IMG/VR virus record: IMGVR_UViG_3300029113_000006
Location: 1-57,109 of that record
Direction: 5' to 3' (one strand)
Length of the DNA: 57,109 bases
Source of the DNA: a virus
Made by a program: the position numbers and the translations under genes. Of the stretch, positions 20,173 through 53,926 are shown one piece after another. The notes beneath the pieces were generated by a model that made no database searches, was not told the origin of the DNA, and saw only the letters and a program-made list of their open reading frames with translations. How positions within the stretch are numbered: position 1 is the stretch's first letter; each line of letters opens with the position of its first letter.

Positions 20173-21681
20173 TTATTCACCCTCTGTTTCTTTATTGGTG
20201 CTGTCAGCCTGTCCGTCTAATGTTTTGTTGACGTTAACAACTTGTTCAGGCTTCGGCTTCTGTGGTTTCGGAGCTTTGCCGTCCTCACCCAGCTTGCCAG
20301 CGGCAATCAGGAAGGGCTTGCTCATTTCATAAGCAGCCTGCGGGTCAGGGAACAGACCGGGCGTAGTGAACGCCAACTGAGGGTCAATGCTCTGACTGAG
20401 CATCTGTGCAAAAATCTGAACCTTGCTTTGCTGATTGTCGTACTGACGGCGGGGCAGCTTGATGTTGATGTCACTTGCCATCAGCTTAGAACCAGCCGTA
20501 TCACGCAGGATTTTCAGCATCACAGACAGGCTTTGGCGTTCCGAGAACTTGAACATATTCTCGTACTGCTGCGCCCTTGCTTCAGTGTGATTCCAGCCGT
20601 TGCGGACGATAACTGCGCCCACGTTGTCAGACGTTGCGTTCTCACTGCCAGTTGCACTAGGCATGGCAGTCAGGCTACGGTACACGTTTAACATGGAATC
20701 AAGCAAGGTCTGGCTCTGCTGCTGGTCAAGCTCGTTTGCAATCTGTGAGACAGAAGCAGGCAGACCAGCGGTAGACTTCAGACACATTGCGCCCAGTTCC
20801 TTGACCTTGTTGAGCGCATCCTCGTCCACAAGGCAGTTCGTAAACACCATGATGGACTGGATGAACTGCGCCACACCGTCCAGACGATTGCTTTCCAGGT
20901 CGTTGATGGAATCCAGAACAGGGATAGCCGGTTCAAACAGACCCATACGCTCCGGGTTGAGCTTGTATTCGACCATCGGTAGCATTCCAAGGGAGTGGTT
21001 TTCCGATTTCGTAACCTTGCCATTGTCGATTTCAAAGTACTGGTTCGGCGTATACACGCAAATCAGGTCGTTCAGGTCATTCTGATAATTGCGTGGGATG
21101 TGCAGCACGTTGGCGATGGGCTTGTGCCCAATACCGGAGTTGTAAATCACATACGCCATATCCGGGTCGGGAACATCCACCAGCAGGGGCGTTTCGTCCG
21201 GGTAGTTGCCGTTGTACCCCTTGTCAGGAAGAACAATGCGGTATCCCTGTCCGCACTCTAACATCCACTGCCAGAGCCGCCGATCAAGCGCGTCCTTGCC
21301 CTCATACTGCAAAGCATTTGACAGGCGGGCGATTTCCTCACCGTCACCTATTGCCGTTTCAGACCGCACATAAGAGCAGGGAGTGCCACTCATGTAACCT
21401 GTGTAGAAACCCACGCATTCATTGGCATGGTTCTCTACAATGCGATTGGTGATTTCAGCGTGGTACTCCTTTGTGCGGAGGAGGACAGGCTGGCTACCCA
21501 AGTAGTAGTTGTGCAGAAAGCGAATCTCGTTCTTGTTCAGCAGATGAATAGGCTCTGCCTTGCCCATGACCACTTTCAGCACATTTGCTTGATTGATTTC
21601 TGTTTCCGGCGTTTCAATCGGTCTACGTCCGGTCAACGGCTCATTCAAAAAACCGTCAACAATCATCTGATACTCAGCCAT
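20173..21681 (-). CDS. Portal protein
   Basis: 502 aa from ATG 21681 (AAGGAGG); lies between the terminase region and scaffold. Confidence 0.8.
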   Translation of the reverse strand: MAEYQMIVDGFLNEPLTGRRPIETPETEINQANVLKVVMGKAEPIHLLNKNEIRFLHNYYLGSQPVLLRTKEYHAEITNRIVENHANECVGFYTGYMSGTPCSYVRSETAIGDGEEIARLSNALQYEGKDALDRRLWQWMLECGQGYRIVLPDKGYNGNYPDETPLLVDVPDPDMAYVIYNSGIGHKPIANVLHIPRNYQNDLNDLICVYTPNQYFEIDNGKVTKSENHSLGMLPMVEYKLNPERMGLFEPAIPVLDSINDLESNRLDGVAQFIQSIMVFTNCLVDEDALNKVKELGAMCLKSTAGLPASVSQIANELDQQQSQTLLDSMLNVYRSLTAMPSATGSENATSDNVGAVIVRNGWNHTEARAQQYENMFKFSERQSLSVMLKILRDTAGSKLMASDINIKLPRRQYDNQQSKVQIFAQMLSQSIDPQLAFTTPGLFPDPQAAYEMSKPFLIAAGKLGEDGKAPKPQKPKPEQVVNVNKTLDGQADSTNKETEGE

Positions 21682-21767
21682 GTGTTCCTCCTTTCCGGCA
21701 AAATAAAAAGCGCAGCAAGACAAACCTGTTAAGGTCTATCTCACTGCGCCAAAAGTGCGCCTTAAAC

Positions 21768-22499: not shown

Positions 22500-22577
22500 T
22501 GGTGCTGCATAATGGATTTGAACCAATGTATGCCCGGTTATGAGCCGGATGCTCTAGCCTGACTGAGCTAATGCAAC
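22500..22577 (-). tRNA. tRNA with CAT anticodon (Met/fMet or Ile2), CCA encoded
   Basis: Hand fold: GTTGCAT/ATGCAGC acceptor, TAGCTCAGTCAGGCTAGAGCA D-arm, TCCGG-CTCATAA-CCGGG, GGTTCAAATCC T-loop, ACCA. Confidence 0.8.
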
Positions 22578-22999: not shown

Positions 23000-24667
23000 T
23001 CAAAAAGGCCTCTTGACAGGCTCAATTTTACTGATTCCGTTGTACAATTCATCGGCAAGCTGTGCCAGACTATCCGGTGCGTCATCGTGCGGAACTTTAC
23101 CAAGCTGCGTGAACATCGTTACCTGTTCCATGAATGCCTTGTACTCTTTCGACTGGTGCTTCTCGTCAAGGAAGTAGAACCGCTTGATGTCCGGCGCATA
23201 CTGGATGATTCTGGATAACTTGCTTTGACCACTTGGCGCACGTTGGCTGCGGACAGAGCAGTGATAGCCTTGCTGCCGGAGCTGGCTGTCTACCACGTCA
23301 CAATATTCATCGCCGCCGTTGTTGGCTTCGCCACGCACCACGTTGATTTTATGCTGGATGATTTTGCCCACGACTTCCGGTCTGGTCACGGTCTTGTCGC
23401 CGTTATTGAACACAAGGTCGGGGATGAACACAGCATCGCCGTACACATAAGCAATAGGACAGGCGGTGAAGTCCCCGCCACCCCATGCAATATCCATGAC
23501 CATGAGCTTGCGATCGGGTTCACCATCAGGCAGCACGCCGTTATAATACCATAGTTCATCGGCAGGGAACAGCAAGCCTTCACGCACATAAGGCTTGCCC
23601 ATGTACTTTGCCCACCATGTTGCATCGTCAATGCTGGCTTTCATGTCTGCATAGTAGGCATCGTCAAATCCCACGCCGTAGTCATAATTGAAATTGCTGT
23701 GTCCGTTCTCATCCACAGCGGGAATCACCCGGAATCTGTACTTTGGATTGTCTGCGTACTGGTTCTGGATGCGCCCCAAAGGGTCAAGCACGTTCCAGCG
23801 TGTGCCGACCATCAGCTCCAATGCGCCTTGCTTTTTACGGTCTTTTAGCTGGTTTAGGTAGGCATCGTACTTGTTGTTCAGACGCTCAACGTTCAGACTT
23901 TCTTCCAAATCCTCAATCAAGTCATCGCTGTACAGAACGCCGCCCTCGCCGATTTCAACAGCACCTGTCAGCGTACCGCCAATGGAGCGGCAAGTCAAAG
24001 TGGGAAAACGCTTTTTACGGTTCAGGTCAACGCTTTCGTCCTTTGCGCTCTTATCTACAAGCTGAACGTCAGGGAAGATTTTCCCCCAATTATAAGTCAC
24101 GGGGTCAGTGATGATAGACAGCACTTCGCCGTAGAAGCCGTTGGTCAGCTTGTCAGAATGTCCGCTCATAACCGATGCAACGTCAGGGCGGTTGCCCATC
24201 AGCCATGTGATAAAAAATATACAGAGCGTACTTTTTCCAGTTCTCGGGGGCTGGCTGACCCCAAGAAATTCTACACGATGGAAAAACAAGTCCTCTAGGT
24301 CACGAACCAACGTCAAAAGCACTTTTCTTCTCGGCTGATAGAACTTCTTTTCCGGCGCACGGTTCCATTCAAGGTAGATGCAATAGCTGTCAAATACATC
24401 CTTTGCTTCAAACAGGTACGTTCGGCTGATAATATCATAGACCTTTGCCACGTCCTCGCCTGTTTTCATCTTGCCCATCATGGCTGCACAGACAGAGCGC
24501 AGCTCCCCAGAGTATTTGTAGGTATCGAACCGCTTGTCTTGCGGCAGAGCATCTCTAAGGTTCACGACCGCCTGAAACCAGTCCTCATAGACCTGTGCTT
24601 CGGTCGGATTCTGCTTTGCATACGCTTTGATGCTGTCAATGATGGCGATACACTGTTTTGACTGCAT
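23000..24667 (-). CDS. terL: Terminase large subunit
   Basis: Walker A-like PPRTGKST, ATPase plus nuclease size; start ATG 24667 is preferred over the TTG at 24757. Confidence 0.9.
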   Translation of the reverse strand: MQSKQCIAIIDSIKAYAKQNPTEAQVYEDWFQAVVNLRDALPQDKRFDTYKYSGELRSVCAAMMGKMKTGEDVAKVYDIISRTYLFEAKDVFDSYCIYLEWNRAPEKKFYQPRRKVLLTLVRDLEDLFFHRVEFLGVSQPPRTGKSTLCIFFITWLMGNRPDVASVMSGHSDKLTNGFYGEVLSIITDPVTYNWGKIFPDVQLVDKSAKDESVDLNRKKRFPTLTCRSIGGTLTGAVEIGEGGVLYSDDLIEDLEESLNVERLNNKYDAYLNQLKDRKKQGALELMVGTRWNVLDPLGRIQNQYADNPKYRFRVIPAVDENGHSNFNYDYGVGFDDAYYADMKASIDDATWWAKYMGKPYVREGLLFPADELWYYNGVLPDGEPDRKLMVMDIAWGGGDFTACPIAYVYGDAVFIPDLVFNNGDKTVTRPEVVGKIIQHKINVVRGEANNGGDEYCDVVDSQLRQQGYHCSVRSQRAPSGQSKLSRIIQYAPDIKRFYFLDEKHQSKEYKAFMEQVTMFTQLGKVPHDDAPDSLAQLADELYNGISKIEPVKRPF

Positions 24668-24772
24668 AAAAAAATAGGCACCCCCTACCTGAAAATGTAA
24701 AGAGTGCCTACAACTGCACAAAAATTGAATATTCGGTTTTATTTTAGTTGCGGACAATGTCAGCTGAAAATA

Positions 24773-25418: not shown

Positions 25419-26075
25419 TTAGCGGTGGCTTGTGGTTGGGCTGCCGCTATTTTTATTTGCGTATCTTTCGACACGCTCATACCAAGTGGATTTCCCTATG
25501 CCAAGCTGCTTGCAGCACTCTTTTACAGTGATTTCGCCTTTTTTCTGTTGTTTTAATAGGCTTTCAAACTGCTGCTCGTCAACTTGCTTTTCCTGTCTTC
25601 CGAAGCTACGGCCTGTTCTGGCCGACACTCTCTTGCCATCAACAATAGGCATGGCAGCTATGCCCTCCGCCTGACGTTGCTTGGTTTTTTTGCGTTCCTG
25701 TTCAGCTACTGCGCCCAAAACCTCAATAAGGATGTTGTTTACCATTTCCAGCACCCACGTCTGGTCTTGGAAGTCAATAAGCGTGGTCGGAATGTCGAGA
25801 ATGCGAACAATCACGCCTTTTTCTTTGAACCATTGAAGTTCTCGCTTCATTTCGTCTTTGTCACGCCCGAATCGGTCAAATTCCTTGACGATGACTTCAT
25901 CCCCAGCCTTGACAGTCTCTTTCAATCGTTTATACTGCGGACGGTCAAAGCTGCTGCCTGTCATTTTATCACAAAATACGTTCTCGTCCGGGATGTCAAA
26001 CCGATCTCGTGCGATTTTAAGCTGTCTTGCAAGATTTTGCTCTTTGCTCGACACTCTCGCTAAGAAATAACGCAT
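25419..26075 (-). CDS. Small serine recombinase (resolvase/invertase family)
   Basis: MRYFLARVSSKEQNLARQ... catalytic Ser motif; C-terminal HTH (GKSTWYERV); about 218 aa. Confidence 0.85.
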   Translation of the reverse strand: MRYFLARVSSKEQNLARQLKIARDRFDIPDENVFCDKMTGSSFDRPQYKRLKETVKAGDEVIVKEFDRFGRDKDEMKRELQWFKEKGVIVRILDIPTTLIDFQDQTWVLEMVNNILIEVLGAVAEQERKKTKQRQAEGIAAMPIVDGKRVSARTGRSFGRQEKQVDEQQFESLLKQQKKGEITVKECCKQLGIGKSTWYERVERYANKNSGSPTTSHR

Positions 26076-26087
26076 TGCAATCACCCG

Positions 26088-30396: not shown

Positions 30397-30660
30397 ATGA
30401 CTGAATTTGAAGAAAAGGTAAACGAATATCGCGAAAATAAGCGGCTTTTGGAAGAGCTGGAAGCAATGAACGAAAGCATTAAAGCAGATATTATCTGCAT
30501 GATGCAGGGCGCGCCTGAGATGGCGCAGGGTACAGCAAAAGCCATTTACAAGGATGTGCAAAGCGTACGGCTAGATAGCAAGCTTTTGAAGACGCTGCAC
30601 CCTGATGTGTATGCCGAATGCAGCAGCAAAACCACCTACAAGCGTTTTAGCGTGGTATAA
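30397..30660 (+). CDS. Hypothetical 87-aa protein
   Basis: AAGGAGG RBS; ORF track. Confidence 0.6.
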   Translation: MTEFEEKVNEYRENKRLLEELEAMNESIKADIICMMQGAPEMAQGTAKAIYKDVQSVRLDSKLLKTLHPDVYAECSSKTTYKRFSVV

Positions 30661-30886
30661 GGGGGTGCAAGCTGTGATACTATCCGCACTTCTGTTTTTC
30701 TTCTGGTTTTTCTCTGCACTTTTCAAGGCCAGTAAATGACCAGATCGGACACTTTAGCGGGGCTGCACCGTAAAGCAACCCCGCCCCAGCCCAAAAGGGC
30801 AAAAATATTTTTGCAAGTCCTGTTTTTGGGGCCTGCGATATGATATACTGTAAAAAAGGGCAAAAGCTCGGAAAGAAGATGGCAAA

Positions 30887-31336
30887 ATGACAAGATTTGA
30901 AATTGACCGCTTGGAAGAGGCTTTCCAATATCTTGAGGACAAACTTAATCACAGGTATGAATATTTGATCAAAAATGGCACGCCAGAGCAAAAAGAAATC
31001 GTAAAGAAAAAAATTAAAAGAGTTTTAATTGATTATAACGACGTGAAAAGGACGCTGAACAATTTTGGTTTCTTCACTGAGGACGAAAATAACACCACTT
31101 ATAATGAAAAATATTTCGCAGATCCTACGATTGACCACGTTTACACCTTCCGCGTTGTGTGGTCTGGTTTCGTAGAAAGCGAAGGCTTTCCCGGTGAAAA
31201 TGAGGAAAATTTTGTTCAGAACGGGCACACAAAAGAAGAAGCACAACATTTTTTAGAATCGCATCTTCTTTTTGAGCACTGCACCGACAAAAATTTCAAA
31301 ATCAAAGAAATTACTTTACTTTATCAAAATGCATAA
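30887..31336 (+). CDS. Hypothetical 149-aa protein
   Basis: ORF track; followed by a terminator. Confidence 0.55.
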   Translation: MTRFEIDRLEEAFQYLEDKLNHRYEYLIKNGTPEQKEIVKKKIKRVLIDYNDVKRTLNNFGFFTEDENNTTYNEKYFADPTIDHVYTFRVVWSGFVESEGFPGENEENFVQNGHTKEEAQHFLESHLLFEHCTDKNFKIKEITLLYQNA

Positions 31337-31343
31337 TTCTCAA

Positions 31344-31374
31344 CCCCGCCCACGCTGGCGGGGCTTTTCTTTTG
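31344..31374 (+). terminator. Intrinsic terminator of the cassette
   Basis: CCCCGCC-cacgct-GGCGGGGCTTTTCTTTT. Confidence 0.7.
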
Positions 31375-32806
31375 CCTTGTATCGACACGGTGCAGGGCTT
31401 TTATTTTTATCAGGCTACAATACAGCCGCATACAAGCGTTTACAGCGCGTTTTGTTCAGTTAATGCAGTTATACCACCAACACCGCAAAACAGCGCACAG
31501 GGCTTTACAGGTGCGTTTCCGGCAATTTGACCCATTCCACCGCATATAATACCAGACCGGCAAAAGCGGATATAACGCCGCCTGCGCCGTGCTGGAGCAC
31601 ATCACAGCGCTGCAGCACCTCCAGCGCATACCAGATACCAGACGCCGCGCCGGACGCTATACAGGTTATAATAAGGTATATAAGGGTGCAGCATACCGCA
31701 AACCATGCCAGCCCGGCGGGGTCAGCTCCTACCGTGTGCGGATCGCTGGCAAGTGCTGCACCCGGCGCACCTGCTGAGGGGTCAGCGCCTCCACCTGTAC
31801 CGGGTCAGCCCGGCGGCGGTCTCGATACTTCCCACGCCTGGCTAAATCCCTGGCGCCGGATTAGCCAGGCATTAGCCCGGCACACGTCCGGTATTATGTT
31901 TTCTTCCTGGCACGGGCGGCGCGGAACAACTGGCGGCTATCGCCGCATCTCTTTTCGGGCTTTCGCCCGATAACCAATAGAGGTCAGCAATAGTCGCAGC
32001 GTTCCGGCTGAGATAGTCGTAGCTAATAGTCGTAGTTTCTCCCGGCGGATAGTCGTGGAATAGTCGTAAAGTCGTCAGACGACCGCCGTTTGAAAGTCCT
32101 ATATATAGTATAACAACGAGCTGTTCGGTGATAGTCGCAGAGTAATAGTCGTAGCATTTTCTTGAGAATCATCGTCAAATAGTCGTGTATTTTTTGTGTG
32201 AAATAGTCGTTTGCCTTTTAGGAGAAGGGAGGTGCGATAGTCGCTAAGTCGTCCGACACCCCCAAAATCAATAGATGTCAAGACACCTGTCAATTTTAAT
32301 CCCAATCGCATTACCTCAAAATCTTTAACAATCGTACTTATTATAATAGTCGCAGACAATTACTCAATTTTTTTAACTATTATTCTGCTAAAATAGTCGT
32401 ATCATCCAATTCGGTTCGTTCTCCTCTGATTTAATTACCGACAGCCACAATCATATCATACCAATCAACTAGGATTATTCATTCGGCAAATACCTCAATG
32501 CTTTTAACTATCCAATAAGACTATCCGACTGGTCAGTCGCTTTTAATCTGTAATCAACCGCTCATACAGCTATGCAACATTTCTACATATTCAACCGACC
32601 ACAAAATGAAGTCAATTCTCCATGTCTGAAATAGTCGTAGACCATCCACCAGTCCGAATCTCACGCCAGTTCTTGCCTACGGTCTGCTCTGCTGGCTAAG
32701 GGTGTGGCTTTGGAGATAGAGGGTTGTAGGGGGGAAGAACCTTTGCAAAAAGCATTTAGTTGTCATTTTCAGTTGTCGCAGTTGTTGCACCATTTTGGCG
32801 TGGGGG

Positions 32807-32908
32807 CCTCAAACAATTTATTTGTTTGAGGGGGGGAGTTAGGGGGATTATAAGGGGTAATAGGGGTTGTAGGGGAAAGAGGGGGAAGAAAGGGGGGAAG
32901 ATTGGATG
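32807..32908 (+). other. 10-bp-stem hairpin followed by a C-free 94-nt tract with seven G4-G7 runs (G-quadruplex/R-loop-prone)
   Basis: CCTCAAACAA-tttat-TTGTTTGAGG, then GGGGGGGagttaGGGGG...GGGGGG; no C from 32815 to 32908. Confidence 0.85.
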
Positions 32909-32946
32909 CAAACGCATCATGTGCATCCATTCGCATGCAAACGCAT
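32906..32946. repeat. Two exact ATGCAAACGCAT boxes 29 bp apart, flanking GCATCCATTCGCAT (origin-like)
   Basis: Read directly; related boxes lie at 35423..35494. Confidence 0.8.
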
Positions 32947-33141
32947 CACGTTAATAGTCGTAGCCATATCAGCTCAAACGCCACTCGATCAAGACGGCTC
33001 CTACTCAAAATAAGACCTTGCCATTTTCTCCCGATAAATAACAAGAGAAAAAAGCACGGAATAGTCGCAGAGGGTAGTTTTACCACCTGATACCATTCCA
33101 TGCTTTCTAATACAGTAGTTTTGTAGCCGCACGAGCTAAGA

Positions 33142-33444
33142 TTAGATATTCTTGGCTTCTCTTGCCTTACGCAAACGCTCTGCCAGTGCTTCACGCTGCT
33201 CTTCGCTGATCTTACGAGTGACAGGTGACCGGAACTTCACAAGACGTTTCGGCATCGAATAGGTCTTGGATTCCTTGCACAGCTTGGCAGACAGATCCGC
33301 CATAAACTTGTATGTGTCTGGGAACTGCTCACAGAGCTTGTCCAGCTTGCGAATGTAAACCGGGTCTGCCGTGTAGATTTCTGCGGTATCTTCCGCTGCG
33401 TTGAAGTTGATGATAGTCTCACGTTCGATGTTGGTGAGTGCCAT
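33142..33444 (-). CDS. Hypothetical 100-aa protein (last gene of the early operon)
   Basis: ORF track. Confidence 0.55.
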   Translation of the reverse strand: MALTNIERETIINFNAAEDTAEIYTADPVYIRKLDKLCEQFPDTYKFMADLSAKLCKESKTYSMPKRLVKFRSPVTRKISEEQREALAERLRKAREAKNI

Positions 33445-33877: not shown

Positions 33878-35101
33878 TTACATCCACACGCATTCTTTGA
33901 ACTGCTGTGTTTCCATCTGGAACGTAATGTCCAGTGACCCCACGTTGCCCTCTTTGTTCTTCTCAAGCGCAAAGTGATAATGCTGCTCTGGTCGTTTTTT
34001 CGTGGTCACGTTCTGTGCCAGCAGGATAATTGCATCTGCGTCCTGCTCGATCTGTCCGCTCTCTCGCAGGTCTGCGGCAGTCGGTGGGATACCCGCTCTT
34101 GCGGTTTCTCGATTGAGCTGCGCAAGAGCTACCACAAGCGTTCCTGTGGACTGTGCGAACTCATGCAGTGCCATGCTGATTTCTGTGACGGCACTGTATC
34201 GGTCTTTCGCTCCGGCTTGATGAATAAGCTGCAAATAGTCGATGAACACCACTTTTGCTTGCATCCTGATGGACTGCGTTCTAATCCATCCAACGCTCTT
34301 ACCAGCAGCGGAGCGAACGAACAGCGGATATTTCTTGATGGCTGCTAGTCGGTCAAGTTCGTTAATGCTGACGGTCTTGTTTTTGACCGTATGCAACGGT
34401 ACGCCTAGCTGGTTTGCTATGATACGAGCATAGAGTGTATCCGGGTCTGTCTCTAGGCTGAAATACGCCACCTTGCGTCCGTTCTTGGCTATTTCACAGG
34501 CAAGTTGCAGAGACAGAGCGGTCTTACCAGCAGACGGTCTTCCGCCGATCACAACGAAGTTTCCCGGCACAAGATGCAAGTTGTTATCCAGCACTCTGAG
34601 CCCTGTGCTGATATACTCCGGCTTATCATCCAGCTTGCGGATGTAATTGTCTATGCCATCGCACATCGGAATGAAATCGCTTCTCTCGTTGTGCAGGTTG
34701 ATGGCTTCGCCTAGCTGCTCATAGATGCCTGTCAGGTCTGCATACCTTGTCGAGCCATCAACGATTTTGAACGCAATCTCTCTGGCTCTGGATAACGCTG
34801 CCTGTTCCTTGACGATTCCAGCCCATCCAAGCATCATGTCATGGGTGACATTGCGGATGAACTCTGCGCCAAAGGCATCTAGGCATTCACCCATTGCTTT
34901 CTTGCAGTTATCGTACCGCCCCATGACTTCTACCGGGTTCCATTTGTCGTTGTGTTCCCAATAACCACGAATGGCAGCGAATGTATCACGCAGTTCTGGG
35001 CAAAAATCGTCGATTTTAAGGTCTTGTAGCACATCGGCGTATTCCGAGAACGTGAGGACTGCTCCCAGCAGGATGTATTGGGTTTGATTTTCAATATTCA
35101 C
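33878..35101 (-). CDS. dnaB: Replicative DNA helicase DnaB
   Basis: GGRPSAGKTALSLQLA Walker A, IDYLQLI, 407 aa. Confidence 0.9.
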   Translation of the reverse strand: MNIENQTQYILLGAVLTFSEYADVLQDLKIDDFCPELRDTFAAIRGYWEHNDKWNPVEVMGRYDNCKKAMGECLDAFGAEFIRNVTHDMMLGWAGIVKEQAALSRAREIAFKIVDGSTRYADLTGIYEQLGEAINLHNERSDFIPMCDGIDNYIRKLDDKPEYISTGLRVLDNNLHLVPGNFVVIGGRPSAGKTALSLQLACEIAKNGRKVAYFSLETDPDTLYARIIANQLGVPLHTVKNKTVSINELDRLAAIKKYPLFVRSAAGKSVGWIRTQSIRMQAKVVFIDYLQLIHQAGAKDRYSAVTEISMALHEFAQSTGTLVVALAQLNRETARAGIPPTAADLRESGQIEQDADAIILLAQNVTTKKRPEQHYHFALEKNKEGNVGSLDITFQMETQQFKECVWM

Positions 35102-35766
35102 CGCAGAAAGTCTCCCTCGTCAGGCAATTCAGCCATAGTTTGCTGATAGCCACCGTTCCAGTCCTTCACGTTGCGCATCCAGTTCCGTGCAGCAGCTTTC
35201 CAGTCTTTCATAGGCGACTTGCCGACTTTCCAGCCATTTGCCGTGAAGTGGTCAACAAACCGCTCTGCTTCCAGTCCGCCGTATCCCTTTTCGGAAAAGT
35301 AGGATTTGGCTTGCTCGATAGTCGGTGCCTTGAAGCGTTTGACTTCGTTGGTATTTTTCTTTTCACATTTTTCTTTTTTATCAGATTCAGATACAGAATC
35401 AGATACAGATAAGGCATCGTTCGCATCCATTTGCATATTTTTCATACCAGTGCATGCGTTTGCATCATTGGTATGCGTTTGTATGCATTTGCATTTTTCG
35501 TCGTTCCAACGCTTATTTGCACTCCGTCTGTTTTTCTTGATTCGCTCCTGTCTTTTCTGTGCATTCATATCATCGAACGCCTTAACAACTTTCCAGAGCA
35601 TCCGCATAGCACGGTCGTTGTCGTATGCTGGCTCAAGTCCAGTCTCAACGTAGTGTGCGTAGTTGCGGACGAATGCTCCAAATTCCTCGTCTGTCAGCTC
35701 GTTCATCGCATGGACGTGTTCCAGCAGAAGAATCATTGATGTTCTCGGCTTGCGTTCCTGCTCCAT
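35098..35766 (-). CDS. Replisome organizer / DnaD-like replication protein
   Basis: Start ATG 35766 (AAGAGGA); N-terminal organizer-like region and a C-terminal ...FVDHFTANGWKVGKSPMKDWKAAARNW motif; directly upstream of dnaB. Confidence 0.6.
   Translation of the reverse strand: MEQERKPRTSMILLLEHVHAMNELTDEEFGAFVRNYAHYVETGLEPAYDNDRAMRMLWKVVKAFDDMNAQKRQERIKKNRRSANKRWNDEKCKCIQTHTNDANACTGMKNMQMDANDALSVSDSVSESDKKEKCEKKNTNEVKRFKAPTIEQAKSYFSEKGYGGLEAERFVDHFTANGWKVGKSPMKDWKAAARNWMRNVKDWNGGYQQTMAELPDEGDFLR
35423..35494. repeat. Cluster of ATGC-N4-GCAT boxes inside the organizer gene (candidate lytic origin)
   Basis: GCATCCATTTGCAT, ATGCGTTTGCAT, ATGCGTTTGTAT, ATGCATTTGCAT. Confidence 0.6.
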
Positions 35767-35768
35767 AT

Positions 35769-35951
35769 TCAATCCTCTTTGTAGCGTTTGTTCCATGCTT
35801 CGACAGCTTTTTCCTTGCCAAATGTTGCAGAAGTACTCACCCCGCATTTTCCGCAGACTACCCAACTAGCCATGTCAACGTTAAGTGGATGAATCACTTT
35901 TACAGTCGGCGGTTCCGCACCGCAGAACGGGCATCTCTTGAGTTCTGTCAC
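35769..35951 (-). CDS. Lar-like restriction-alleviation zinc-ribbon protein
   Basis: CPFCG...CGKCG...AVEAWNKR pattern; GTG start. Confidence 0.5.
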   Translation of the reverse strand: MTELKRCPFCGAEPPTVKVIHPLNVDMASWVVCGKCGVSTSATFGKEKAVEAWNKRYKED

Positions 35952-36124
35952 TTTCTAAATCCCTCTCTCGTTCTCGTGATTCGCTTATGCGCCTTGATAG
36001 GCCTTGTGCCTTTGCCGTATACTGGGCGGATATGTTTTGCCTTGATGTACCCGCAAGGCGGCTTCGGCCCGAAGTCGAAAAGGCTCAAGTCCATAATGAT
36101 GATGCCAAACTTTTTGTTCGTCAT
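35948..36124 (-). CDS. 58-aa basic protein (below ORF-track cutoff)
   Basis: AAGGAGG RBS; MTNKKFGIIIMDLSLFDFGPKPPCGYIKAKH... Confidence 0.5.
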   Translation of the reverse strand: MTNKKFGIIIMDLSLFDFGPKPPCGYIKAKHIRPVYGKGTRPIKAHKRITRTREGFRK

Positions 36125-36126
36125 AC

Positions 36127-36378
36127 TTAGGCCTCCTTTGGTGGCTCTGGCATATACGCCCAGTGCGTCACTTGTGCGTACTTTTCGCCAAATTCGCTTT
36201 TCTCGAAATTGTAGTATCCTTCGTAGGTGTCAGTCCAGCATCGACCATTCCAAACCGCCTCAAACACTTCTGGCTTGTCTCCAATAAGGGTTTGCATAGA
36301 GACAAGCACCGCATCGCAATCGCTAGGTGGAAGTCCTTCTTTTTTAATGGAGTGCCAAACAACTTTGCTTTCGCTCAT
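36127..36378 (-). CDS. DUF551-like protein
   Basis: ...VTHWAYMPEPP C-terminal signature. Confidence 0.55.
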   Translation of the reverse strand: MSESKVVWHSIKKEGLPPSDCDAVLVSMQTLIGDKPEVFEAVWNGRCWTDTYEGYYNFEKSEFGEKYAQVTHWAYMPEPPKEA

Positions 36379-36387
36379 AGTGTTCTC

Positions 36388-36621
36388 CTATACCATCGGG
36401 AACGCCATCCAATCCGTCACTGTCACACCTTCCGGCAGTCTCTCGCCTATCTCGTCCCAGAACTGACCGTCTGCGTAACAGCCGAGAAAGTACGCTGTTG
36501 GCGAGATTCCTCGCAACATTTTTCCATCTTTATCACGCCACGTTGTCTTAGTCGCAAGCAACAAAGGCTGCGTCCGCTCTCGTGGCGGCTCGCTTGCTGG
36601 ATGCCAAAGTGTGTTAGCCAT
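36388..36621 (-). CDS. DUF551-like protein
   Basis: WHPASEPP...VTDWMAFP. Confidence 0.45.
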   Translation of the reverse strand: MANTLWHPASEPPRERTQPLLLATKTTWRDKDGKMLRGISPTAYFLGCYADGQFWDEIGERLPEGVTVTDWMAFPMV

Positions 36622-36636
36622 TATCCGATACCCCGC

Positions 36637-37020
36637 TTACGGATTGTAGGTGAGAACGAAGTTTTGTAACTGCTGCGGCAAGATGTTGATTTCGTAATGA
36701 TACTTGTCCACGTCAGAACCGCTCAAATCCTCCACAATGTACATTGTGTACTCGTTAAGATAGACGTAATGCTTTTTGTATGTGCCATCGGGCAATTCAA
36801 TAGTCACCACAAGTTCATTGTTGCTGTTATTGGAAATGTCCATGTTCCCGATTATTTCAAGCATCGGCGTATCAGTTCTTGCATTAACAACAGACAATCT
36901 GCGAGTGACGTTGAAATTCTTTGCCTGCTGCGAAATATTGTGATTCACACGAGATGCTTCTGTGCATCCGCACAATGCGATAGATGCCGCCAATGCTACA
37001 GATAAAATTGCTTTCTTCAT
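36637..37020 (-). CDS. Lipoprotein
   Basis: MKKAILSVALAASIALCGC lipobox. Confidence 0.7.
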   Translation of the reverse strand: MKKAILSVALAASIALCGCTEASRVNHNISQQAKNFNVTRRLSVVNARTDTPMLEIIGNMDISNNSNNELVVTIELPDGTYKKHYVYLNEYTMYIVEDLSGSDVDKYHYEINILPQQLQNFVLTYNP

Positions 37021-37496
37021 TGTTCTTTTCTCCCTTCAATCTCCTTACAAACCGCCTTGTAGAACGCATCCCACGTCTCATAGTCGCAGGAATCGCCAAA
37101 GTCAAAACCAGTCCGCTTTCGCTCTGCAATGTCACGCTCAAAGCAATCAAGCGTCTTGTCCGTCAGCTCCGGCAGAAGCGAGATGATATATCTGCATACA
37201 AGGCTAGGCATATATGACCGTCTGCCCAAGCAGTAGCGGACGGCGCAGTTGCAGACAGCTCCGAAGTCATCACTGGCGGGGTCTACCATACCTTTGGGAG
37301 CATCTGACCTCAAATCGTCCACACTGCATTCAAGAGCTTCTGCAAACTTTGCCAGCCGCGTTTCCTTCTTTACGCCACGCTTTTGCTTTTCAACGGCACT
37401 GACATACGCATTGGTTGTTCCAATCATCCTCGCAACGTCTTTTTGCTTGATGCCAAGTTCAAGCCTACGCTTCCTGATTTTTTCTCCTGCTGTCAT
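37017..37496 (-). CDS. XRE-family HTH protein with extra C-terminal domain
   Basis: IRKRRLELGIKQKDVARMIGTTNAYVSAVE... Confidence 0.7.
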   Translation of the reverse strand: MTAGEKIRKRRLELGIKQKDVARMIGTTNAYVSAVEKQKRGVKKETRLAKFAEALECSVDDLRSDAPKGMVDPASDDFGAVCNCAVRYCLGRRSYMPSLVCRYIISLLPELTDKTLDCFERDIAERKRTGFDFGDSCDYETWDAFYKAVCKEIEGRKEQ

Positions 37497-37498
37497 TT

Positions 37499-37723
37499 TT
37501 ATACCCCTGCCTTGTACATTGCATACAAGAACCCAAAACCAATCAAAAAAATGATGATATGGAGAACCGCATCTGCGAGAATCTTTTGCTTTTCACCGGA
37601 AATTTCTCGCAAAAAGCCATTCCATATAATAATGTTCTCAACAAGAAACACCATTCCGCATACAATCGTTCCGACCATGAAAGATGCTAAAACCACTATC
37701 ATCCCGTCTATGATATTGCCCAT
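37499..37723 (-). CDS. Small membrane protein (two TM helices)
   Basis: Start chosen at ATG 37723; hydrophobic segments. Confidence 0.4.
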   Translation of the reverse strand: MGNIIDGMIVVLASFMVGTIVCGMVFLVENIIIWNGFLREISGEKQKILADAVLHIIIFLIGFGFLYAMYKAGV

Positions 37724-37955
37724 TTTCCCTTTTCTCCCATTCTTTGCATCCACGTTCATCCCACACGAAGTCTGCAACGTGTTCTGACTGGTCGTTCACG
37801 CACACGCCCTCCGGTTCTGCGTACCATTTGCAAGAGCCACAGGACGGCTCAGATTTGTTCTTGCAGGATTCTGCTGTGCATCGGATAGCCTTACCAGCAA
37901 AGAACCGCTTGATGCCCATGCAAGAGCAATGTTCGGTGGTACAGTAGAAGTTCAT
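37638..37955 (-). CDS. Cys-rich protein
   Basis: MNFYCTTEHCSCMG...CGSCKW...; the 3' end overlaps the next ORF. Confidence 0.4.
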   Translation of the reverse strand: MNFYCTTEHCSCMGIKRFFAGKAIRCTAESCKNKSEPSCGSCKWYAEPEGVCVNDQSEHVADFVWDERGCKEWEKRENGQYHRRDDSGFSIFHGRNDCMRNGVSC

Positions 37956-38185
37956 TTCTCTATCTCCTTCCATCCGATAAACTCACATAAACCAACAGTG
38001 TTGTTGGCGCAACGATGAATGAGGACTTTATCGCTTATTTTGAATTTTTCGATAAACCCAATTTTACTTTCTTCCATTTCGTTTTCAAACATCCAATCAA
38101 CAATGTCTTTGTCGATTCTGACATCGCCTTCGTCCGTCATAGTCGCAAAGCACTGTTTGCATCTGTAAAGAGCACACTTTTTCAT
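37952..38185 (-). CDS. Hypothetical 77-aa protein
   Basis: ORF track. Confidence 0.45.
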   Translation of the reverse strand: MKKCALYRCKQCFATMTDEGDVRIDKDIVDWMFENEMEESKIGFIEKFKISDKVLIHRCANNTVGLCEFIGWKEIEK

Positions 38186-38394: not shown

Positions 38395-39179
38395 TATTCA
38401 TCCTCCCCTACGTCCTTAAACAGGACTTCTTTGTCTGCTTTCCAGTCTTTGATTTTGCACGGAATGTCCGTGCCGGGTACGGTCTTTTTCAGCCCGTCCA
38501 TCTGCCAGATGTTCCATGAGATGATAGCGGCCATGTTGCGAACCTTCCCAGCGTCAGGCTCTATGCCGAACAGCCACTTAAAGTTCTCTCGCCATGTCAG
38601 GAGCATATTTGCTCTTGCAAGCAACAGACTGTCACCCTGCCACTCATAGCCGTATGTAGTCGTCGCTGCGTCCTCTGCCACATCGTGCCATGTCCAGACA
38701 TTCCAATCAAACCAGTTGTTTACACATTTCAGTTTGCGGTCAAACAGTCCTTTCCGCCTTGGTACTGGAATTTTTTTGCCTGTTACCGTGTCGTATCGGT
38801 TCACAAGGAATGGTGCTTCTCCGCAGGTGATTTCAAGGACTGTCGAATGGATGTACTTGATAGGCTCTTTCTTCATATCGGGCATCGCACCGTTTTCTTC
38901 GCCCATGTCTATCATCTTTTCGCAGACATAAGAAGAAGTGAAAACCTCTGCTTTTGCTTTGGTTCTCTTCTTCTGCTCATCCAGACGCTTGAGAACTCGT
39001 GGCACTGGCGGGCATTTCTTGATTTGTTCTAACGTGATTTCATCCGCAAAGCCCGCACCCAGTTCAGGCGGTGGCTCTGTCGCCCAGATGATGTTTTTGC
39101 CGGTCGTACGGTCTTTCAGCAAGATAAACAGCGCCGCTGACAGAATCGGGTCGGAGAAATCAACCAACCGTTGTTTCAT
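38394..39179 (-). CDS. N6-methyltransferase-like protein without a recognisable catalytic (D/N)PP(Y/F) motif
   Basis: AEVFTSSYVCEKMID and VLEITCGEAPFLV resemble the TP..V / EP.CG.G.FL AdoMet-site motifs; no NPPY or DPPY seen. Confidence 0.4.
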   Translation of the reverse strand: MKQRLVDFSDPILSAALFILLKDRTTGKNIIWATEPPPELGAGFADEITLEQIKKCPPVPRVLKRLDEQKKRTKAKAEVFTSSYVCEKMIDMGEENGAMPDMKKEPIKYIHSTVLEITCGEAPFLVNRYDTVTGKKIPVPRRKGLFDRKLKCVNNWFDWNVWTWHDVAEDAATTTYGYEWQGDSLLLARANMLLTWRENFKWLFGIEPDAGKVRNMAAIISWNIWQMDGLKKTVPGTDIPCKIKDWKADKEVLFKDVGEDE

Positions 39180-39927
39180 TTTCCGCTACCTCTCTGTACT
39201 CCACGTCAATCCCCTTCGGCAAAGCCGTCTGGTACTTCTGGGCCAACTGCTCTGCGCTTTGGGCATCGCCCAACGGCTGCTCAGGCGGCGCAACGGTGAC
39301 TTCCACGTTGTCACGCATACCAAAGTAGTTCTTGGCTCGGAAAATCCATTCTGCCGGGTTCTCCTGACCGTACATACCGTTGTACGCCCACATGGACTGC
39401 ATTTGCAGAATTAGCTTCAAGATGTACTTCTGCTGCAAGCTGTCGTCACGGCGTTTGCCTGTCATAATCTGTCTCAGGCTAGGCCATTCGATGCCCAACA
39501 CCAGTGCAATCCATTCCACCACAGGGGAGATTCTGGCTTCGATGCAAGCGTCAAAAAAGAAGTCAAGACGTTGCTGCACTTCAATCGGGTTGTTCATGTC
39601 CACGCTCGGAAGGTCGCCAAAATATTTGGCCGCAATCATGCCGACAACTTTCTTGTCCTCTTCATCACCAATTCTTGACTGCAAATCTCCTGTGTTCATC
39701 ATCTTCAGCTTCTCGATAGCCAACTCCTGTTGTTCTTTCACTTTTTTACTCACCTGTGAGCGGATAGATTTCCGCTTGTTAAGCATCTGTTGCTTCTTCT
39801 TCTCTCGCTCTTTCTCACGCTTCGCAGCGGCTTGCTCTTTTGCCTTTTGCGCCCGCTTCTCACGCTTTTTCTTTTCAGCTTCGGTCAGCGGCGGTCTGCC
39901 ACGACCACGCTTCGGGGGTGTTGCCAA
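39160..39927 (-). CDS. Terminase small subunit-like protein
   Basis: KRGRGRPP N-terminus, ...FFFDACIEARISPVVEWIALVLGI... and ...WIFRAKNYFGMRDNVEV motifs typical of Firmicutes-phage terS; TTG start after GAGGTG. Confidence 0.5.
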   Translation of the reverse strand: MATPPKRGRGRPPLTEAEKKKREKRAQKAKEQAAAKREKEREKKKQQMLNKRKSIRSQVSKKVKEQQELAIEKLKMMNTGDLQSRIGDEEDKKVVGMIAAKYFGDLPSVDMNNPIEVQQRLDFFFDACIEARISPVVEWIALVLGIEWPSLRQIMTGKRRDDSLQQKYILKLILQMQSMWAYNGMYGQENPAEWIFRAKNYFGMRDNVEVTVAPPEQPLGDAQSAEQLAQKYQTALPKGIDVEYREVAENETTVG

Positions 39928-42644: not shown

Positions 42645-42859
42645 TCTCTCTCACCTCTAAATTCGCTTCCGAGATACCGCTTCTTACCACGCTCCCGGTG
42701 CTTGTCCTCATAGTCACGGTGGTACACGCTCTGGCTGTGGTTCAGCTCATACACGAATGCTTTGCGCTCCTCGAGGTCTTTCTTCTCTGCCTTGTACTTC
42801 TCGCAAGTGTCGTGGCAAGCTGTGCAGCGTAATTTGCAGTTGAGACAACAGGTAATCAT
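42641..42859 (-). CDS. Cys-rich 72-aa protein
   Basis: Start at internal ATG 42859, overlapping the methyltransferase stop; MITCCLNCKLRCTACHDTCEKY... Confidence 0.45.
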   Translation of the reverse strand: MITCCLNCKLRCTACHDTCEKYKAEKKDLEERKAFVYELNHSQSVYHRDYEDKHRERGKKRYLGSEFRGERE

Positions 42860-51196: not shown

Positions 51197-51740
51197 CTCC
51201 ACTTTTTGTACACAATAGACCTGTTATAAATATAGTTTTAGGTTGTCATTTTGTCCCCCATAGAATCGTAAATGGTGGATTTTTGCGGATGTAATTAACG
51301 GACTTTCGTAAAATTTTAGTTCATCAAAGAGTGACTTGTCAATTCGTCCCCTATTGGTGTAATTGCACTCCATTTTCTGTACACGATAGAACCGTCAGGT
51401 AGATTATAGGGCTTGATGGACGTTTCTTATTCAGCAAAAGATCAGCAAAAGAAGTTGTCGTTTTCCACAATCTGCCCGTTGAAGAGAAGAAATTGTTGAA
51501 AATGTATCGTCGCCACTATTTGATGATGATTATTTATCTCTTGTTTATCTCTTGTTTATATATATAGTAAGAACGTGTACAAAAAGTGGAGCATTGTGTA
51601 CATAAAGTGGAGTAACGTGTACAAGAAGTGGATGGTATCGTGTACAAAAAGTGGAGTAACGTGTACAGAATGTGGAAGTCGATTGTTGAAAAATAATTGT
51701 GTACAGAATCATTGACGTGTACACGATACAGTGGTATAAT
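51197..51740. repeat. Iteron origin: 5 direct 17-bp iterons (21-23 bp phasing), 2 degenerate copies, 2 inverted distal copies, AT-rich 11-bp tandem repeat
   Basis: GTGTACAAAAAGTGGAG at 51575 and 51640, variants at 51596, 51617, 51661, 51699, 51717; inverted at 51197 and 51368; TTATCTCTTGT x2 at 51534-55. Confidence 0.85.
51712..51740 (+). promoter_or_regulatory. rep promoter TTGACG-17-TATAAT overlapped by the last iteron
   Basis: Read directly. Confidence 0.55.
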
Positions 51741-53673: not shown

Positions 53674-53926
53674 TAAAGAAGCACTGCTAGAAAGGCTTGA
53701 TTTGTTTATTTGCGAGTATGACAGAATGGATCAAGAAGAAGCGATAGAAGCAATAAGAACCGTGATTAAAGCCGTCAAAATGATGCCAGAAACCCGGCAC
53801 TCAAAGTGGGTTAGAACAAAAAACTTGATTATATCTTACAAATGTTCTATTTGCGGATATGAAACAGAAGTTGCACAAATGAGATATTGCCCGAACTGTG
53901 GCGCACGGATGGAGAATGTGAAATGA
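53660..53926 (+). CDS. Zinc-ribbon protein
   Basis: CSICG...CPNCG. Confidence 0.45.
   Translation: MRMIDKEALLERLDLFICEYDRMDQEEAIEAIRTVIKAVKMMPETRHSKWVRTKNLIISYKCSICGYETEVAQMRYCPNCGARMENVK

Follow-up and report, generated by a model that had tools for sequence, protein, structure and literature searches.

The heptad array and its surroundings

The window, meaning the whole 57,109-nt IMG/VR virus record that was analysed, is assembled as a circle; its terminal overlap of 99 bp shows circular assembly only. Its ORF-poor stretch of 1.8 kb, pointed out in an earlier note on this DNA, has just short or low-complexity ORFs (31337–33141). Within it, a recount bore out the 15 exact copies of ATAGTCG reported on the + strand of 31990–33067, with starts at 31990, 32013, 32026, 32049, 32060, 32131, 32145, 32179, 32203, 32237, 32346, 32393, 32631, 32954, and 33061; as was also said, the interval has no inverted copies. 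Counted over both strands of the whole window, the heptad occurs 21 times against a shuffle mean of 3.37 (maximum 9). The consensus proposed earlier, rATAGTCGyAG, holds as rATAGTCGy in 15/15 copies (5′ base A in 11, G in 4; 3′ base T in 10, C in 5), while the trailing AG is weaker (A 11/15, G 10/15). The close pairs 32013/32026, 32049/32060, and 32131/32145, which had been given as 11–14 bp apart, measure 13, 11, and 14 bp. Both degenerate variants named before are present, with AAGTCGTC starting at 32069 and 32246, one base earlier than reported; their heptads are AAAGTCG (32068–32074), which is the dominant variant in many other phages, and TAAGTCG (32245–32251).

Twelve of the 15 copies fall in a dense block, 31990–32399, which the earlier note had missed. 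The core of this block (31990..32254, + strand) carries 10 exact heptads and the two variants at spacings of 23, 13, 23, 11, 8–10, 71, 14, 34, 24, 34, and 8–10 bp, and each copy is exact in 42–55 of 55 family members. The block ends in A+T-rich, less conserved DNA (32346..32399, + strand), where the heptads at 32346 and 32393 are kept in 18/55 and 35/55 relatives, respectively. It is followed by a proximal tail (32631..33067, + strand) of isolated co-oriented heptads at 32631, 32954, and 33061, the first of them kept in 48/55 relatives, and by a distal tail (34235..38145, + strand), also overlooked before, with heptads at 34235 in dnaB, 35318 in the replisome organizer gene, 37080 in an HTH gene, and 38139. 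Markov models of order 1–3 predict 0.2–0.7 copies where these four distal ones are found, and the + strand has no further ATAGTCG elsewhere in the genome.

The left boundary of the array is formed by two conserved hairpins, GGCGGCTATCGCCGC then CGGGCTTTCGCCCG (31931..31980, + strand), with a terminator-like match on the + strand and 93% family identity in 31950–31999; no co-oriented heptads lie to the left of them. The adjoining GC-rich, ORF-less DNA (31440–31960) folds only slightly more stably than shuffles (z = -1.5 on the + strand and -2.1 on the - strand). A G-run tract (32720–32900) and GATGCAAACGCATCA boxes (32905–32948) fall inside the proximal-tail span and appear to be features separate from the heptads. 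The segment 32750–33150 is present in only about half of the 55 relatives, and it is here that the G-run tract breaks fall: the GenBank relatives MT839567 and MT836051 break near 32844–32886, that is, in the tract, and are uninformative on genome ends. Contig ends were likewise rejected as physical genome ends, as locus ranges end at arbitrary positions within contigs. A promoter cluster was rejected too, with one sigma-70-like site found against 4.0 expected from shuffles.

Small terminase, large terminase, and portal genes

A TerS-like gene of the GP3_package superfamily, encoding 255 aa, lies at 39160–39927 on the - strand. This ORF is matched along its entire core by a profile of array-adjacent TerS proteins (E=2e-27), and membership of Pfam PF16677 is reached via intermediates: homologues P0033–P0039 carry PF16677, P0033 with 37% identity, 97% coverage, and E=2e-36. 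Searched directly, the window TerS gave no Pfam family at E≤0.01 and none in PHROGs. Its AlphaFold2 model has a mean pLDDT of 76.6; Foldseek of this model against PDB returned no match below E=1, the non-significant top ranks being 3p9a (P22 gp3; TM 0.55 normalised to target, 131 columns) and 2ao9. Among PDB sequences, the profiles found no terminase below E=0.1, with 2ao9 at E=0.11 for profile A2. The gene has the orientation conserved among relatives and sits mid early operon, far from terL, 6.1 kb from the last array copy and 6.8 kb from the end of the dense array.

The large terminase gene terL (23000–24757, - strand) is recognised by a weak Pfam match to the T7-terminase RNaseH-like nuclease domain (26.8 bits, where the cut-off is 27), and the packaging module that lies downstream of the array includes an SPP1-type portal gene at 20173..21723 (- strand; Pfam SPP1_portal, E=1e-55). 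In the compared phages, the genes that immediately precede terL are unrelated small accessory genes, and thus no other TerS candidate is seen in these phages.

Association with terS in other phages

The short repeat accompanies a homologous terminase gene in well over a hundred other gut phages and prophages. A scan of IMG/VR for three close ATAGTCG copies yielded at least 119 loci. Among the matches listed, the array of 34 of the 61 loci dissimilar to the window lies 0–228 bp from the 3′ end of one gene family, which in these 34 diverse phages is always on the strand opposite to the array and matches Pfam GP3_package PF16677 (E=1e-12 and 2e-9), the P22-gp3-type small terminase. The reverse test started from 70 loci of bacterial genomes picked by TerS homology only (23–44% identity to the window protein). 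From -120 to +500 of the terS stop, CGACT reaches a density of 8.11/kb, compared with 0.33/kb in the opposite orientation and 0.12/kb at 1.5 kb further on. Four or more core copies stand near the terS stop in 45/70 loci and in the opposite orientation in 0/70; fewer than four are found by the stop of 25/70 TerS homologues and fewer than three by that of 22/70. The dominant heptads at these loci are CGACTAT, CGACTTT, and CGACTCT. No pattern of HTH-region residues distinguishes the TAT, TTT, and TCT classes, and different variants occur together in many arrays. AGTCG arrays are missing from a sub-clade of nine TerS proteins, in which the repeats upstream of terS occur in both orientations and do not look comparable to the arrays.

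Where flanks are complete, a terL homologue is present in 25/25 arrayed loci, 2.7–8.4 kb beyond the array, a portal in 24/25, and a resolvase in 18/25. A resolvase target site was rejected because 7/25 of these loci are without resolvase; resolvase sites are, moreover, built of inverted half-sites, which also counts against such a target. Within 10 kb of the 45 arrayed loci, homologues of ParA, Rep_3, and the ribbon-helix-helix (RHH) protein number 0, DnaB is found in 1, and the replisome organizer in 4. The array is thus accompanied by terminase genes independently of other modules, the replication modules being variable. Its association with terS and terL is exclusive and its orientation fixed, always antisense to both in the compared loci.

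In all lineages the array occupies the early/late junction. It directly follows the terS stop codon in most relatives; in the lineage of the window a DnaB/replisome-organizer block lies between the two, and terS, where found in window-like loci, is always 5.2–8.1 kb right of the array on the - strand. By their record titles, arrayed loci belong to Bacillota, Actinomycetota, Bacteroidota, and Gammaproteobacteria, although many are binned metagenome genomes; several loci are prophages in chromosomal contigs of 240–630 kb. The occurrence in several phyla speaks for a reader encoded by the phage and not by the host. The association could largely reflect shared synteny in one large phage supergroup. 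A search of viral contigs with the TerS alignment returned near-identical relatives only, with flanks too short to reach the array.

Conservation, polarity, and one-sided gradient

Conservation and orientation in related phages, a check proposed in the earlier note, support the motif: its columns are 92.5% conserved in 55 relatives vs 80.6% for the spacers. Copy number and spacing turn over between lineages and the core is kept, the commonest heptad spacing across arrays being 7 bp. Greater conservation of motif columns than of spacers suggests a protein-binding array of short direct repeats, as put forward before, and such an array would fit everything found here.

Between array and terS, 54 co-oriented vs 7 opposite copies were counted family-wide, and co-oriented density decays over 0–6 kb on the terS side. 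On the late-gene side of the arrays, 196 kb of summed sequence holds no co-oriented copy. Strict polarity and a one-sided gradient are seen in three data sets, as expected for a directional process.

A candidate pac-type recognition region

The reading that we favour is that the ATAGTCG array is probably a pac-type recognition region for the P22-gp3-type TerS of this phage (39160–39927). A terS recognition array was the last role listed in the earlier note and is the sole one of its candidates with comparative support; from this support we infer TerS binding, cleavage, and a direction of packaging. The types of TerS and portal suggest that the phage packages by a headful mechanism. The heptads would form a polar set of short TerS sites with the core AGTCG, on whose dense block (31990–32400) TerS oligomers may load cooperatively, with the weaker dispersed co-oriented copies of the next 6 kb helping to capture TerS. 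TerS would then recruit TerL (23000–24757), the proposed nuclease and motor, and the first cut of the packaging series would be made in or beside the array. The direction of packaging would follow from the uniform orientation and the sharp, motif-free left boundary; as in P22 and SPP1, it probably runs leftwards into resolvase-terL-portal.

The fixed orientation expected of a pac site is found here, with 15 copies on one strand and no reversed arrays among the 70 TerS-picked loci. Characterised pac sites lie in or beside terS, and this counts against a pac role for the array of the window, which is distant from terS; the expected position is taken in the 34 IMG/VR loci and the 45 TerS-picked loci described above. 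Other points also stand against a pac site, among them the failure of direct Pfam, PHROGs, and fold searches to give a significant match for the window TerS, the 25/70 TerS homologues with fewer than four core copies, the possible shared synteny, and the HTH residues, which show no covariation with the heptad variant. The commonest spacing of 7 bp differs from the approximately 10–11 bp expected for one site per ring subunit per helical turn, and standard pac models do not account in detail for the one-sided enrichment and avoidance.

An extension of the pac-type reading, which we put forward tentatively and regard as rather doubtful, is that the dense array and its decaying co-oriented tail make up a polar guidance system for packaging, a KOPS-like code read by terminase. 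Isolated heptads over approximately 6 kb would catch TerS or the holoenzyme, fix its orientation, and channel it towards the dense block; cleavage would occur at the sharp motif-free boundary, and the DNA that is first to enter the capsid would have been cleared of co-oriented copies. If so, TerS specificity would be carried by a repeated 5–7-bp word and not by one long pac site.

Alternative readings

The best surviving alternative, although unlikely, keeps the TerS-like protein as the reader and gives the array a purpose other than the start of packaging, namely a boundary or roadblock that divides the early operon from the accessory and late genes, or a regulatory store of TerS. It draws on the position of the array at the early/late junction in all lineages, on the placement of terS within the early operon and away from terL in the window phage, and on the gradient, which looks more like a loading zone than a point site. 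Against these stand terL and portal as the only universal partners and the strict polarity, for which a simple roadblock has no obvious use. As these genomes offer no other TerS candidate, the TerS-like protein must also serve packaging.

That the heptads are iterons of a lytic origin, bound by the replisome organizer (35098–35865) or another initiator, with the A+T-rich DNA of 32260–32620 as the unwinding element, is improbable. The array does lie at the end of the replication module, beside A+T-rich DNA and repeat boxes, and origins at the end of the early region occur in siphoviruses of Bacillota, which counts for an origin. Iterons would, however, be tied to one initiator family, usually beside or within its gene, and the heptads are not tied to one family: the replication genes beside arrays belong to the unrelated families D5_N/Pox_D5, DUF927/Cch, and DnaB with DUF6291, and organizer and DnaB are as rare in arrayed loci as given above. 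The lytic-origin role suggested earlier is disfavoured because the heptad accompanies these three unrelated replication modules. The A+T-rich stretch has approximately 0.65 identity in the family, and A+T-richness alone is not diagnostic. It is a different box, GATGCAAACGCATCA, that is common to 32905–32948 and the inside of the organizer gene, the arrangement expected of organizer-type origins.

An action of the repeats as RNA is comparably improbable. The repeats, whose - strand reading CGACUAU would fall in the 3′ UTR of the terS or early-operon transcript, would serve to bind or titrate an RNA-binding protein, or else to stabilise the message. The terS stop on one side and a terminator-like hairpin with a T run (judged by eye) on the other enclose the array at many loci, so that it is probably transcribed; in the window no - strand terminator-like site separates the gene 33142–33444 from the array. 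Rfam searches over the window at gathering thresholds, and over 31300–33200 at E≤1, gave no match in the array, and a non-coding RNA was rejected on these searches. Copies inside unrelated coding genes and one-sided avoidance are hard to explain for a UTR element, and the protein family that goes with the arrays is a terminase subunit that binds DNA.

Slightly less credible still is a host enzyme as the reader, with the heptads as a polar signal of the Chi or KOPS kind, by which the DNA end would be protected or oriented after the packaging cut. Single orientation, a one-sided tail of several kb, and avoidance on the other side do resemble polar chromosomal motifs. The record titles of arrayed loci, however, cover several phyla with different recombination nucleases, and Chi sequences differ between bacterial groups, which counts against a host-read signal. 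The motif follows a phage protein family and not a host group, and tandem 7-bp packing is typical of protein-binding arrays.

Least credible of all is a centromere or copy-control locus of a plasmid state, in which the RHH protein (53887–54495) would act on the array for ParA (52894–53673): the genome does encode Rep_3, ParA, and an RHH-domain protein, and RHH-bound centromeres are arrays of short repeats, which speaks for a centromere, but ParA, Rep_3, and RHH are missing within 10 kb of all 45 arrayed loci, several of them prophages in large chromosomal contigs, and this contradicts the centromere for the ParA/RHH pair that the earlier note had listed first. A type Ib centromere would adjoin the par operon and be co-inherited with it, and the array, approximately 20 kb from parA, does neither; eleven AGCC in one 10-bp phase (53997–54204), immediately after parA, are a better centromere candidate. 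Copy control is unsupported because Rep_3 and ParA are missing from all other arrayed loci, and Rep_3 has iterons of its own, five copies of the 21-bp AACGTGTACAAAAAGTGGAGT at 51572–51676, to which the heptad is unrelated, as had been noted.

Comparison with known systems

In P1, many copies of a short oligonucleotide serve as the packaging signal: seven hexamers in two clusters on either side of the cut, regulated by Dam methylation and read by PacA/PacB. The array here resembles P1 pac in its many short copies and differs by its one-sided tail of several kb, which to our knowledge P1 pac does not have. In the omega heptads of pSM19035 and in ParG/parH of TP228, a small DNA-binding protein binds cooperatively to 7-bp units in tandem, and these arrays are operators or centromeres beside par genes, with direct and inverted units mixed. 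They share with the terS-linked arrays the commonest spacing of 7 bp, but the units here have one orientation and are tied to terS/terL, without ParA. Chi and the KOPS of FtsK are read by host motors and spread genome-wide. They act in an orientation-dependent way, and a strand skew extending over kilobases is seen here too; the copies here, in contrast, stay within approximately 6 kb beside a dense array and are tied to a phage protein family.

The candidate reader belongs to the same superfamily (GP3_package) as P22 gp3, and P22 pac is likewise asymmetric, with the site in or beside terS in most array relatives. Directional packaging from P22 pac is known from inserted pac sites (PMC11260489). 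P22 pac is one 17–22-bp site inside the small-terminase gene, AAGATTTATCTGAAGTC (PMC11260489 Table 1, PMC9611059), unlike the 5–17 short heptads at or after the terS 3′ end with a tail of several kb, and unlike the array of the window, 6 kb from terS. Sequence likeness to P22 pac, whose functional consensus is a single 17-nt bipartite site, was rejected, as only AGTC is common to both and is too short as evidence.

SPP1/SF6 pac (pacL-pacC-pacR; boxes A, B, and C) consists of direct repeats proposed to wrap around the TerS ring, in which helix-turn-helix motifs are about one DNA turn apart; sequence-specific binding by the SF6 DNA-binding domain could not be shown (PMC4737164). The likeness lies in a pac made from sets of direct repeats and in the SPP1-type portal of the window. 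SPP1 TerS is, however, of another family, and SPP1 pac lies over the terS promoter and 5′ end with few repeats per box, whereas here one exact heptad recurs in many copies and is kept across highly divergent TerS proteins.

Small-terminase recognition of viral DNA is an old open problem. According to reviews, attempts to reproduce the specific binding of TerS to pac in vitro have almost never succeeded, and TerS specificity is accounted for by neither the wrapping nor the threading model (PMC9611059, PMC4737164). Our literature search, of incomplete coverage and no proof of novelty, returned no paper on ATAGTCG or AGTCG arrays beside terS. If the pac-type reading is true, a single short word in many copies marks where packaging begins in a large and highly abundant set of gut phages and prophages, with thousands of sequences in the closest TerS clusters alone. 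This would provide a simple substrate for TerS binding and structural work, as well as a sequence rule for reading packaging starts and directions from genomes, which matters for lateral and generalized transduction in gut Bacillota, and the one-sided gradient and other-side avoidance would be a new feature to explain. The idea may be testable at the bench, since the record titles of arrayed loci include the apparently cultured Flavonifractor sp. An92, Dorea ammoniilytica, Catenibacterium mitsuokai DSM 15897, and Collinsella aerofaciens.

Array and its conservation

The heptad ATAGTCG occurs in 15 exact copies on the + strand at 31990-33067, with no inverted copy in this span, as the earlier note had described. 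A motif search of the window confirmed that the pattern is highly non-random: both strands together hold 21 matches, whereas dinucleotide-preserving shuffles give an expectation of 3.4 (maximum 9). The flanks rATAGTCGy fit all 15 copies, and the trailing AG of the originally proposed consensus rATAGTCGyAG is weaker. Twelve of the 15 copies form a dense block (31990-32399), which holds in addition the variant heptads AAAGTCG (32068) and TAAGTCG (32245). The block lies, as also reported earlier, in an ORF-poor gap of 1.8 kb; the gap is flanked by + strand genes that end at 31336 and by a - strand operon whose end is at 33142.

The motif is kept on the same strand in three GenBank contigs from human faeces having 73-85% identity, and conservation is selective. 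In an alignment with 55 distinct relatives, identity to the window is 92.5% in motif columns versus 80.6% in spacer columns, and the first ten copies are individually unchanged in 42-55 of the 55. The comparison with related phages proposed in the earlier note thus found both motif and orientation conserved.

Association with small terminase genes

The ATAGTCG array is not private to the window phage. Scanning IMG/VR for three closely spaced ATAGTCG gave at least 119 loci, and 119 listed loci, three GenBank relatives and the window were compared (123 sequences). Of these, 62 are window-like, and the other 61 differ strongly in array copy number and spacing. When the ORFs around these 61 arrays were clustered into protein families, one family was found at 34 (among the matches listed). 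Its gene is in every case on the other strand from the motif, and the stop codon either overlaps the array or is 0-228 bp away. This family matches Pfam GP3_package (PF16677), the small-terminase family of P22 gp3. Most of the remaining 27 loci lack sequence on the terS side or are seemingly unrelated (e.g., giant-virus tandem repeats). On the terS strand the order is primase/helicase, terS, array, variable accessory genes, serine recombinase, terL, and portal.

A profile of the array-adjacent TerS proteins matched exactly one window ORF, 39160-39927 (-), over the whole core (E = 2e-27). Database homologues of this ORF carry PF16677; Pfam and PHROGs searches with the window protein itself gave no match, and Foldseek with its AlphaFold2 model gave non-significant matches only, P22 gp3 and 2ao9, a Bacillus cereus prophage protein, being near the top. 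The gene order in the window is like that of the other arrayed phages, but a block of an HTH gene, the organizer gene, dnaB and small genes stands between terS and the array. Wherever a terS was found in a window-like locus, it is on the - strand and 5.2-8.1 kb rightward of the array.

To avoid the bias of motif-based selection, 70 loci in bacterial genome contigs were picked by TerS homology alone (identity with the window TerS, 23-44%). The groups most often named in the record titles of these loci are Oscillospiraceae, Ruminococcus, and other Clostridia; some titles name Collinsella, Olsenella, Bacteroidaceae, or Succinivibrionaceae. Near the terS stop (-120 to +500), the core in array orientation, CGACT, has a density of 8.11/kb, compared with 0.33/kb for the opposite orientation and 0.12/kb for CGACT 1.5 kb further on. 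At least four core copies are present at 45 of the 70 loci, and in the opposite orientation at none. The commonest heptads are CGACTAT, CGACTTT, and CGACTCT, often as perfect 7-bp tandems beginning within the last terS codons; neighbour spacing in 102 arrays peaks at 7 bp, followed by 11, 9, 8, 13, and 12 bp. A clear array is missing at 25 of the 70.

One TerS sub-clade without AGTCG arrays has other short repeats between the replication gene and terS (GGTAAC/GTTACC, GTAACC/GGTTAC, GGACAC/GTGTCC; loci L209, L226, L214, L251). These occur in both orientations and do not look analogous to the heptads; they may be origins or operators. Among the loci with a heptad array, that of Catenibacterium mitsuokai DSM 15897 (NZ_CAXVKN010000006.1, 44,021 bp; CGACTCT/CGACTAT) lies on a contig with a coverage of about 2480x according to the record title. 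This contig may represent a phage that replicates actively in a cultured strain, and would then be a convenient test system.

One-sided tail

Between the array and terS there are four extra co-oriented copies (34235, 35318, 37080, and 38139, +). They are not noise, the number expected in this interval from Markov models of order 1-3 being 0.2-0.7; the remaining 50 kb of the window has no other + strand ATAGTCG. Family-wide, the array-to-terS interval has 54 co-oriented versus 7 opposite copies, and the late-gene side has 0 versus 10 in 180 kb. Co-oriented density on the terS side falls over successive kb from the dense array (2.6, 1.0, 0.7, 0.4, 0.5, and 0.3 per kb), and no co-oriented copy was found in 196 kb of late-gene side summed. 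Since transcription runs in the same direction on both sides, the contrast is not explained by a bias of codons or transcription. A gradient of this shape is also seen in the genome loci selected by TerS and in the unrelated phages from IMG/VR; the three differently selected data sets agree, although the loci are mutually related and the copy counts are not independent events.

Partners of the array and alternative functions

Among the full-flank arrayed loci (n = 25), terL is present in 25 and a portal gene in 24. The replication proteins adjoining the arrays come from families with no relation to each other (D5_N/Pox_D5 primase-helicase, DUF927/Cch helicase, and, in the window, DnaB with DUF6291). 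The small genes immediately upstream of terL are unrelated accessory genes, and therefore offer no second TerS candidate. The terminase and portal genes are thus the only constant partners of the heptads, an exclusive and oriented association that argues against the centromere, copy-control, and origin functions considered in the earlier note. For two of these roles the window has better candidates in its GATGCAAACGCATCA boxes, AGCC repeat, and Rep_3 iterons.

As to a part in the lytic origin, the replication genes of the window include those for DnaB and a replisome-organizer-like protein (DUF6291), next to one for an HTH protein. Of the 45 arrayed loci, one has DnaB and four have the organizer within 10 kb. 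A candidate lytic origin is formed by GATGCAAACGCATCA boxes at 32905-32948 (+), beside the G-run tract (two copies with 0-1 mismatch, others degenerate), and at 35420-35500 inside the organizer gene 35098-35865 (about four degenerate, reverse-complement copies), as the pattern resembles an origin inside an initiator gene with a second site elsewhere. The recurrence in a 15-mer search by itself is not above chance.

The leading candidate of the earlier note was a ParA/RHH centromere. The window phage is a phage-plasmid (Rep_3, ParA, and RHH-domain protein all encoded), and its assembly is circular, about 57.0 kb long, with ends overlapping by 99 bp. Homologues of these three proteins occur within 10 kb at 0 of the 45 arrayed loci. 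The AGCC repeat at 53997-54204 (+), right after parA (52894-53673), is a candidate for this centromere by its sequence pattern: about 20 units of the 10-bp repeat nnnnAGCCnA, with 11/11 AGCC in the same phase modulo 10. It lies in the 5' half of ORF 53887-54495, a period of 10 bp does not correspond to whole codons, and the RHH domain is confined to the C-terminus; the true gene start may be further downstream. A copy-control locus is disfavoured by the same constant partners, the Rep_3 iterons being at 51572-51676.

Proposed role in packaging

On sequence comparison, the array seems reasonably likely to be a pac-type recognition region for packaging. This agrees with the last candidate of the earlier note, a terS recognition array, and with its general proposal of a protein-binding array. 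The heptads, as short words bound by TerS, would make up a polar array that has a sharp boundary. Terminase would cleave there and begin a headful packaging series, probably towards terL and the portal gene by analogy with P22 and SPP1. The distance of 6 kb between array and terS in the window phage, and the TerS homologues lacking a clear array, count against packaging. Further weak points are that the array is probably transcribed and that the 7-bp modal spacing does not suit a TerS ring with one site at every turn of the DNA; the array-terS association may also look stronger than it is through shared synteny.

The pac of P1 consists of clustered hexamers. P22, having a TerS of the same superfamily as here, uses a single 17-22-bp site inside gene 3 (PMC9611059; PMC11260489 Table 1); the AGTC it shares with the heptad is too short to be informative. 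The pac of SPP1/SF6 has direct-repeat sets, for which a wrapping model was proposed with specificity unproven (PMC4737164), and its TerS is of another family. The present arrays have 5-17 copies of one heptad on the 3' side of terS, and span TerS proteins of 16-30% identity and several record-named host groups. Literature searches found neither multi-heptad arrays on the 3' side of terS conserved across divergent TerS nor a one-sided tail of several kb. The result extends beyond the window phage to a group of phages that is very abundant, and is relevant to an unsolved problem, the way in which small terminases locate viral DNA.

Other elements

A C-5 cytosine DNA methylase gene (42856-44259, -) is in the same operon as terS, and the heptad core has a CpG; the P1 pac hexamers are methylated by Dam. 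Next to the array, a G+C-rich segment of 500 bp (31440-31970) lacks a convincing ORF on both strands, although relatives conserve its nucleotide sequence. Two hairpins, also conserved, close the segment where it meets the array. Its predicted folding is only marginally better than that of shuffled sequence (z = -1.5 and -2.1), and Rfam gave no match to it. The G-run tract at 32720-32900 (+), of TAGGGG / GGGGGAAG units, is carried by only about half of the family. The GenBank relatives MT839567 and MT836051 end or begin at it; these breaks could stem from a problem in sequencing or assembly, from variability of the region, or from a DNA end. Many IMG/VR relatives (e.g., L027, L037, L052, L094, L104, L117, L122) are contigs of about 29-32 kb in a family of 57-59-kb phages, some terminating near the array, which suggests that assembly breaks repeatedly at two places of variable or repetitive sequence.

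Besides TerL (23000-24757, -) and an SPP1-type portal (20173-21723, -), the window has a small serine recombinase of resolvase/DNA invertase type (25419-26084, -), upstream of terL with one small gene between. A homologue lies between array and terL at 18 of the 25 full-flank arrayed loci (among loci L203-L272); multimer resolution and inversion are possibilities. A tRNA-Met gene (anticodon CAT; 22500-22577, -) is between the portal and terL genes, and a DUF3800-VIII RNA motif is at 1764-1827 (-; Rfam 70.4 bits, gathering score 40.2). RAGATH-5, a ribozyme-class candidate RNA (30745-30795, +; 60.3 bits, gathering score 50), is directly downstream of an 87-aa gene (30397-30660), homologues of which are on the same array side in 12 clustered loci, window included.
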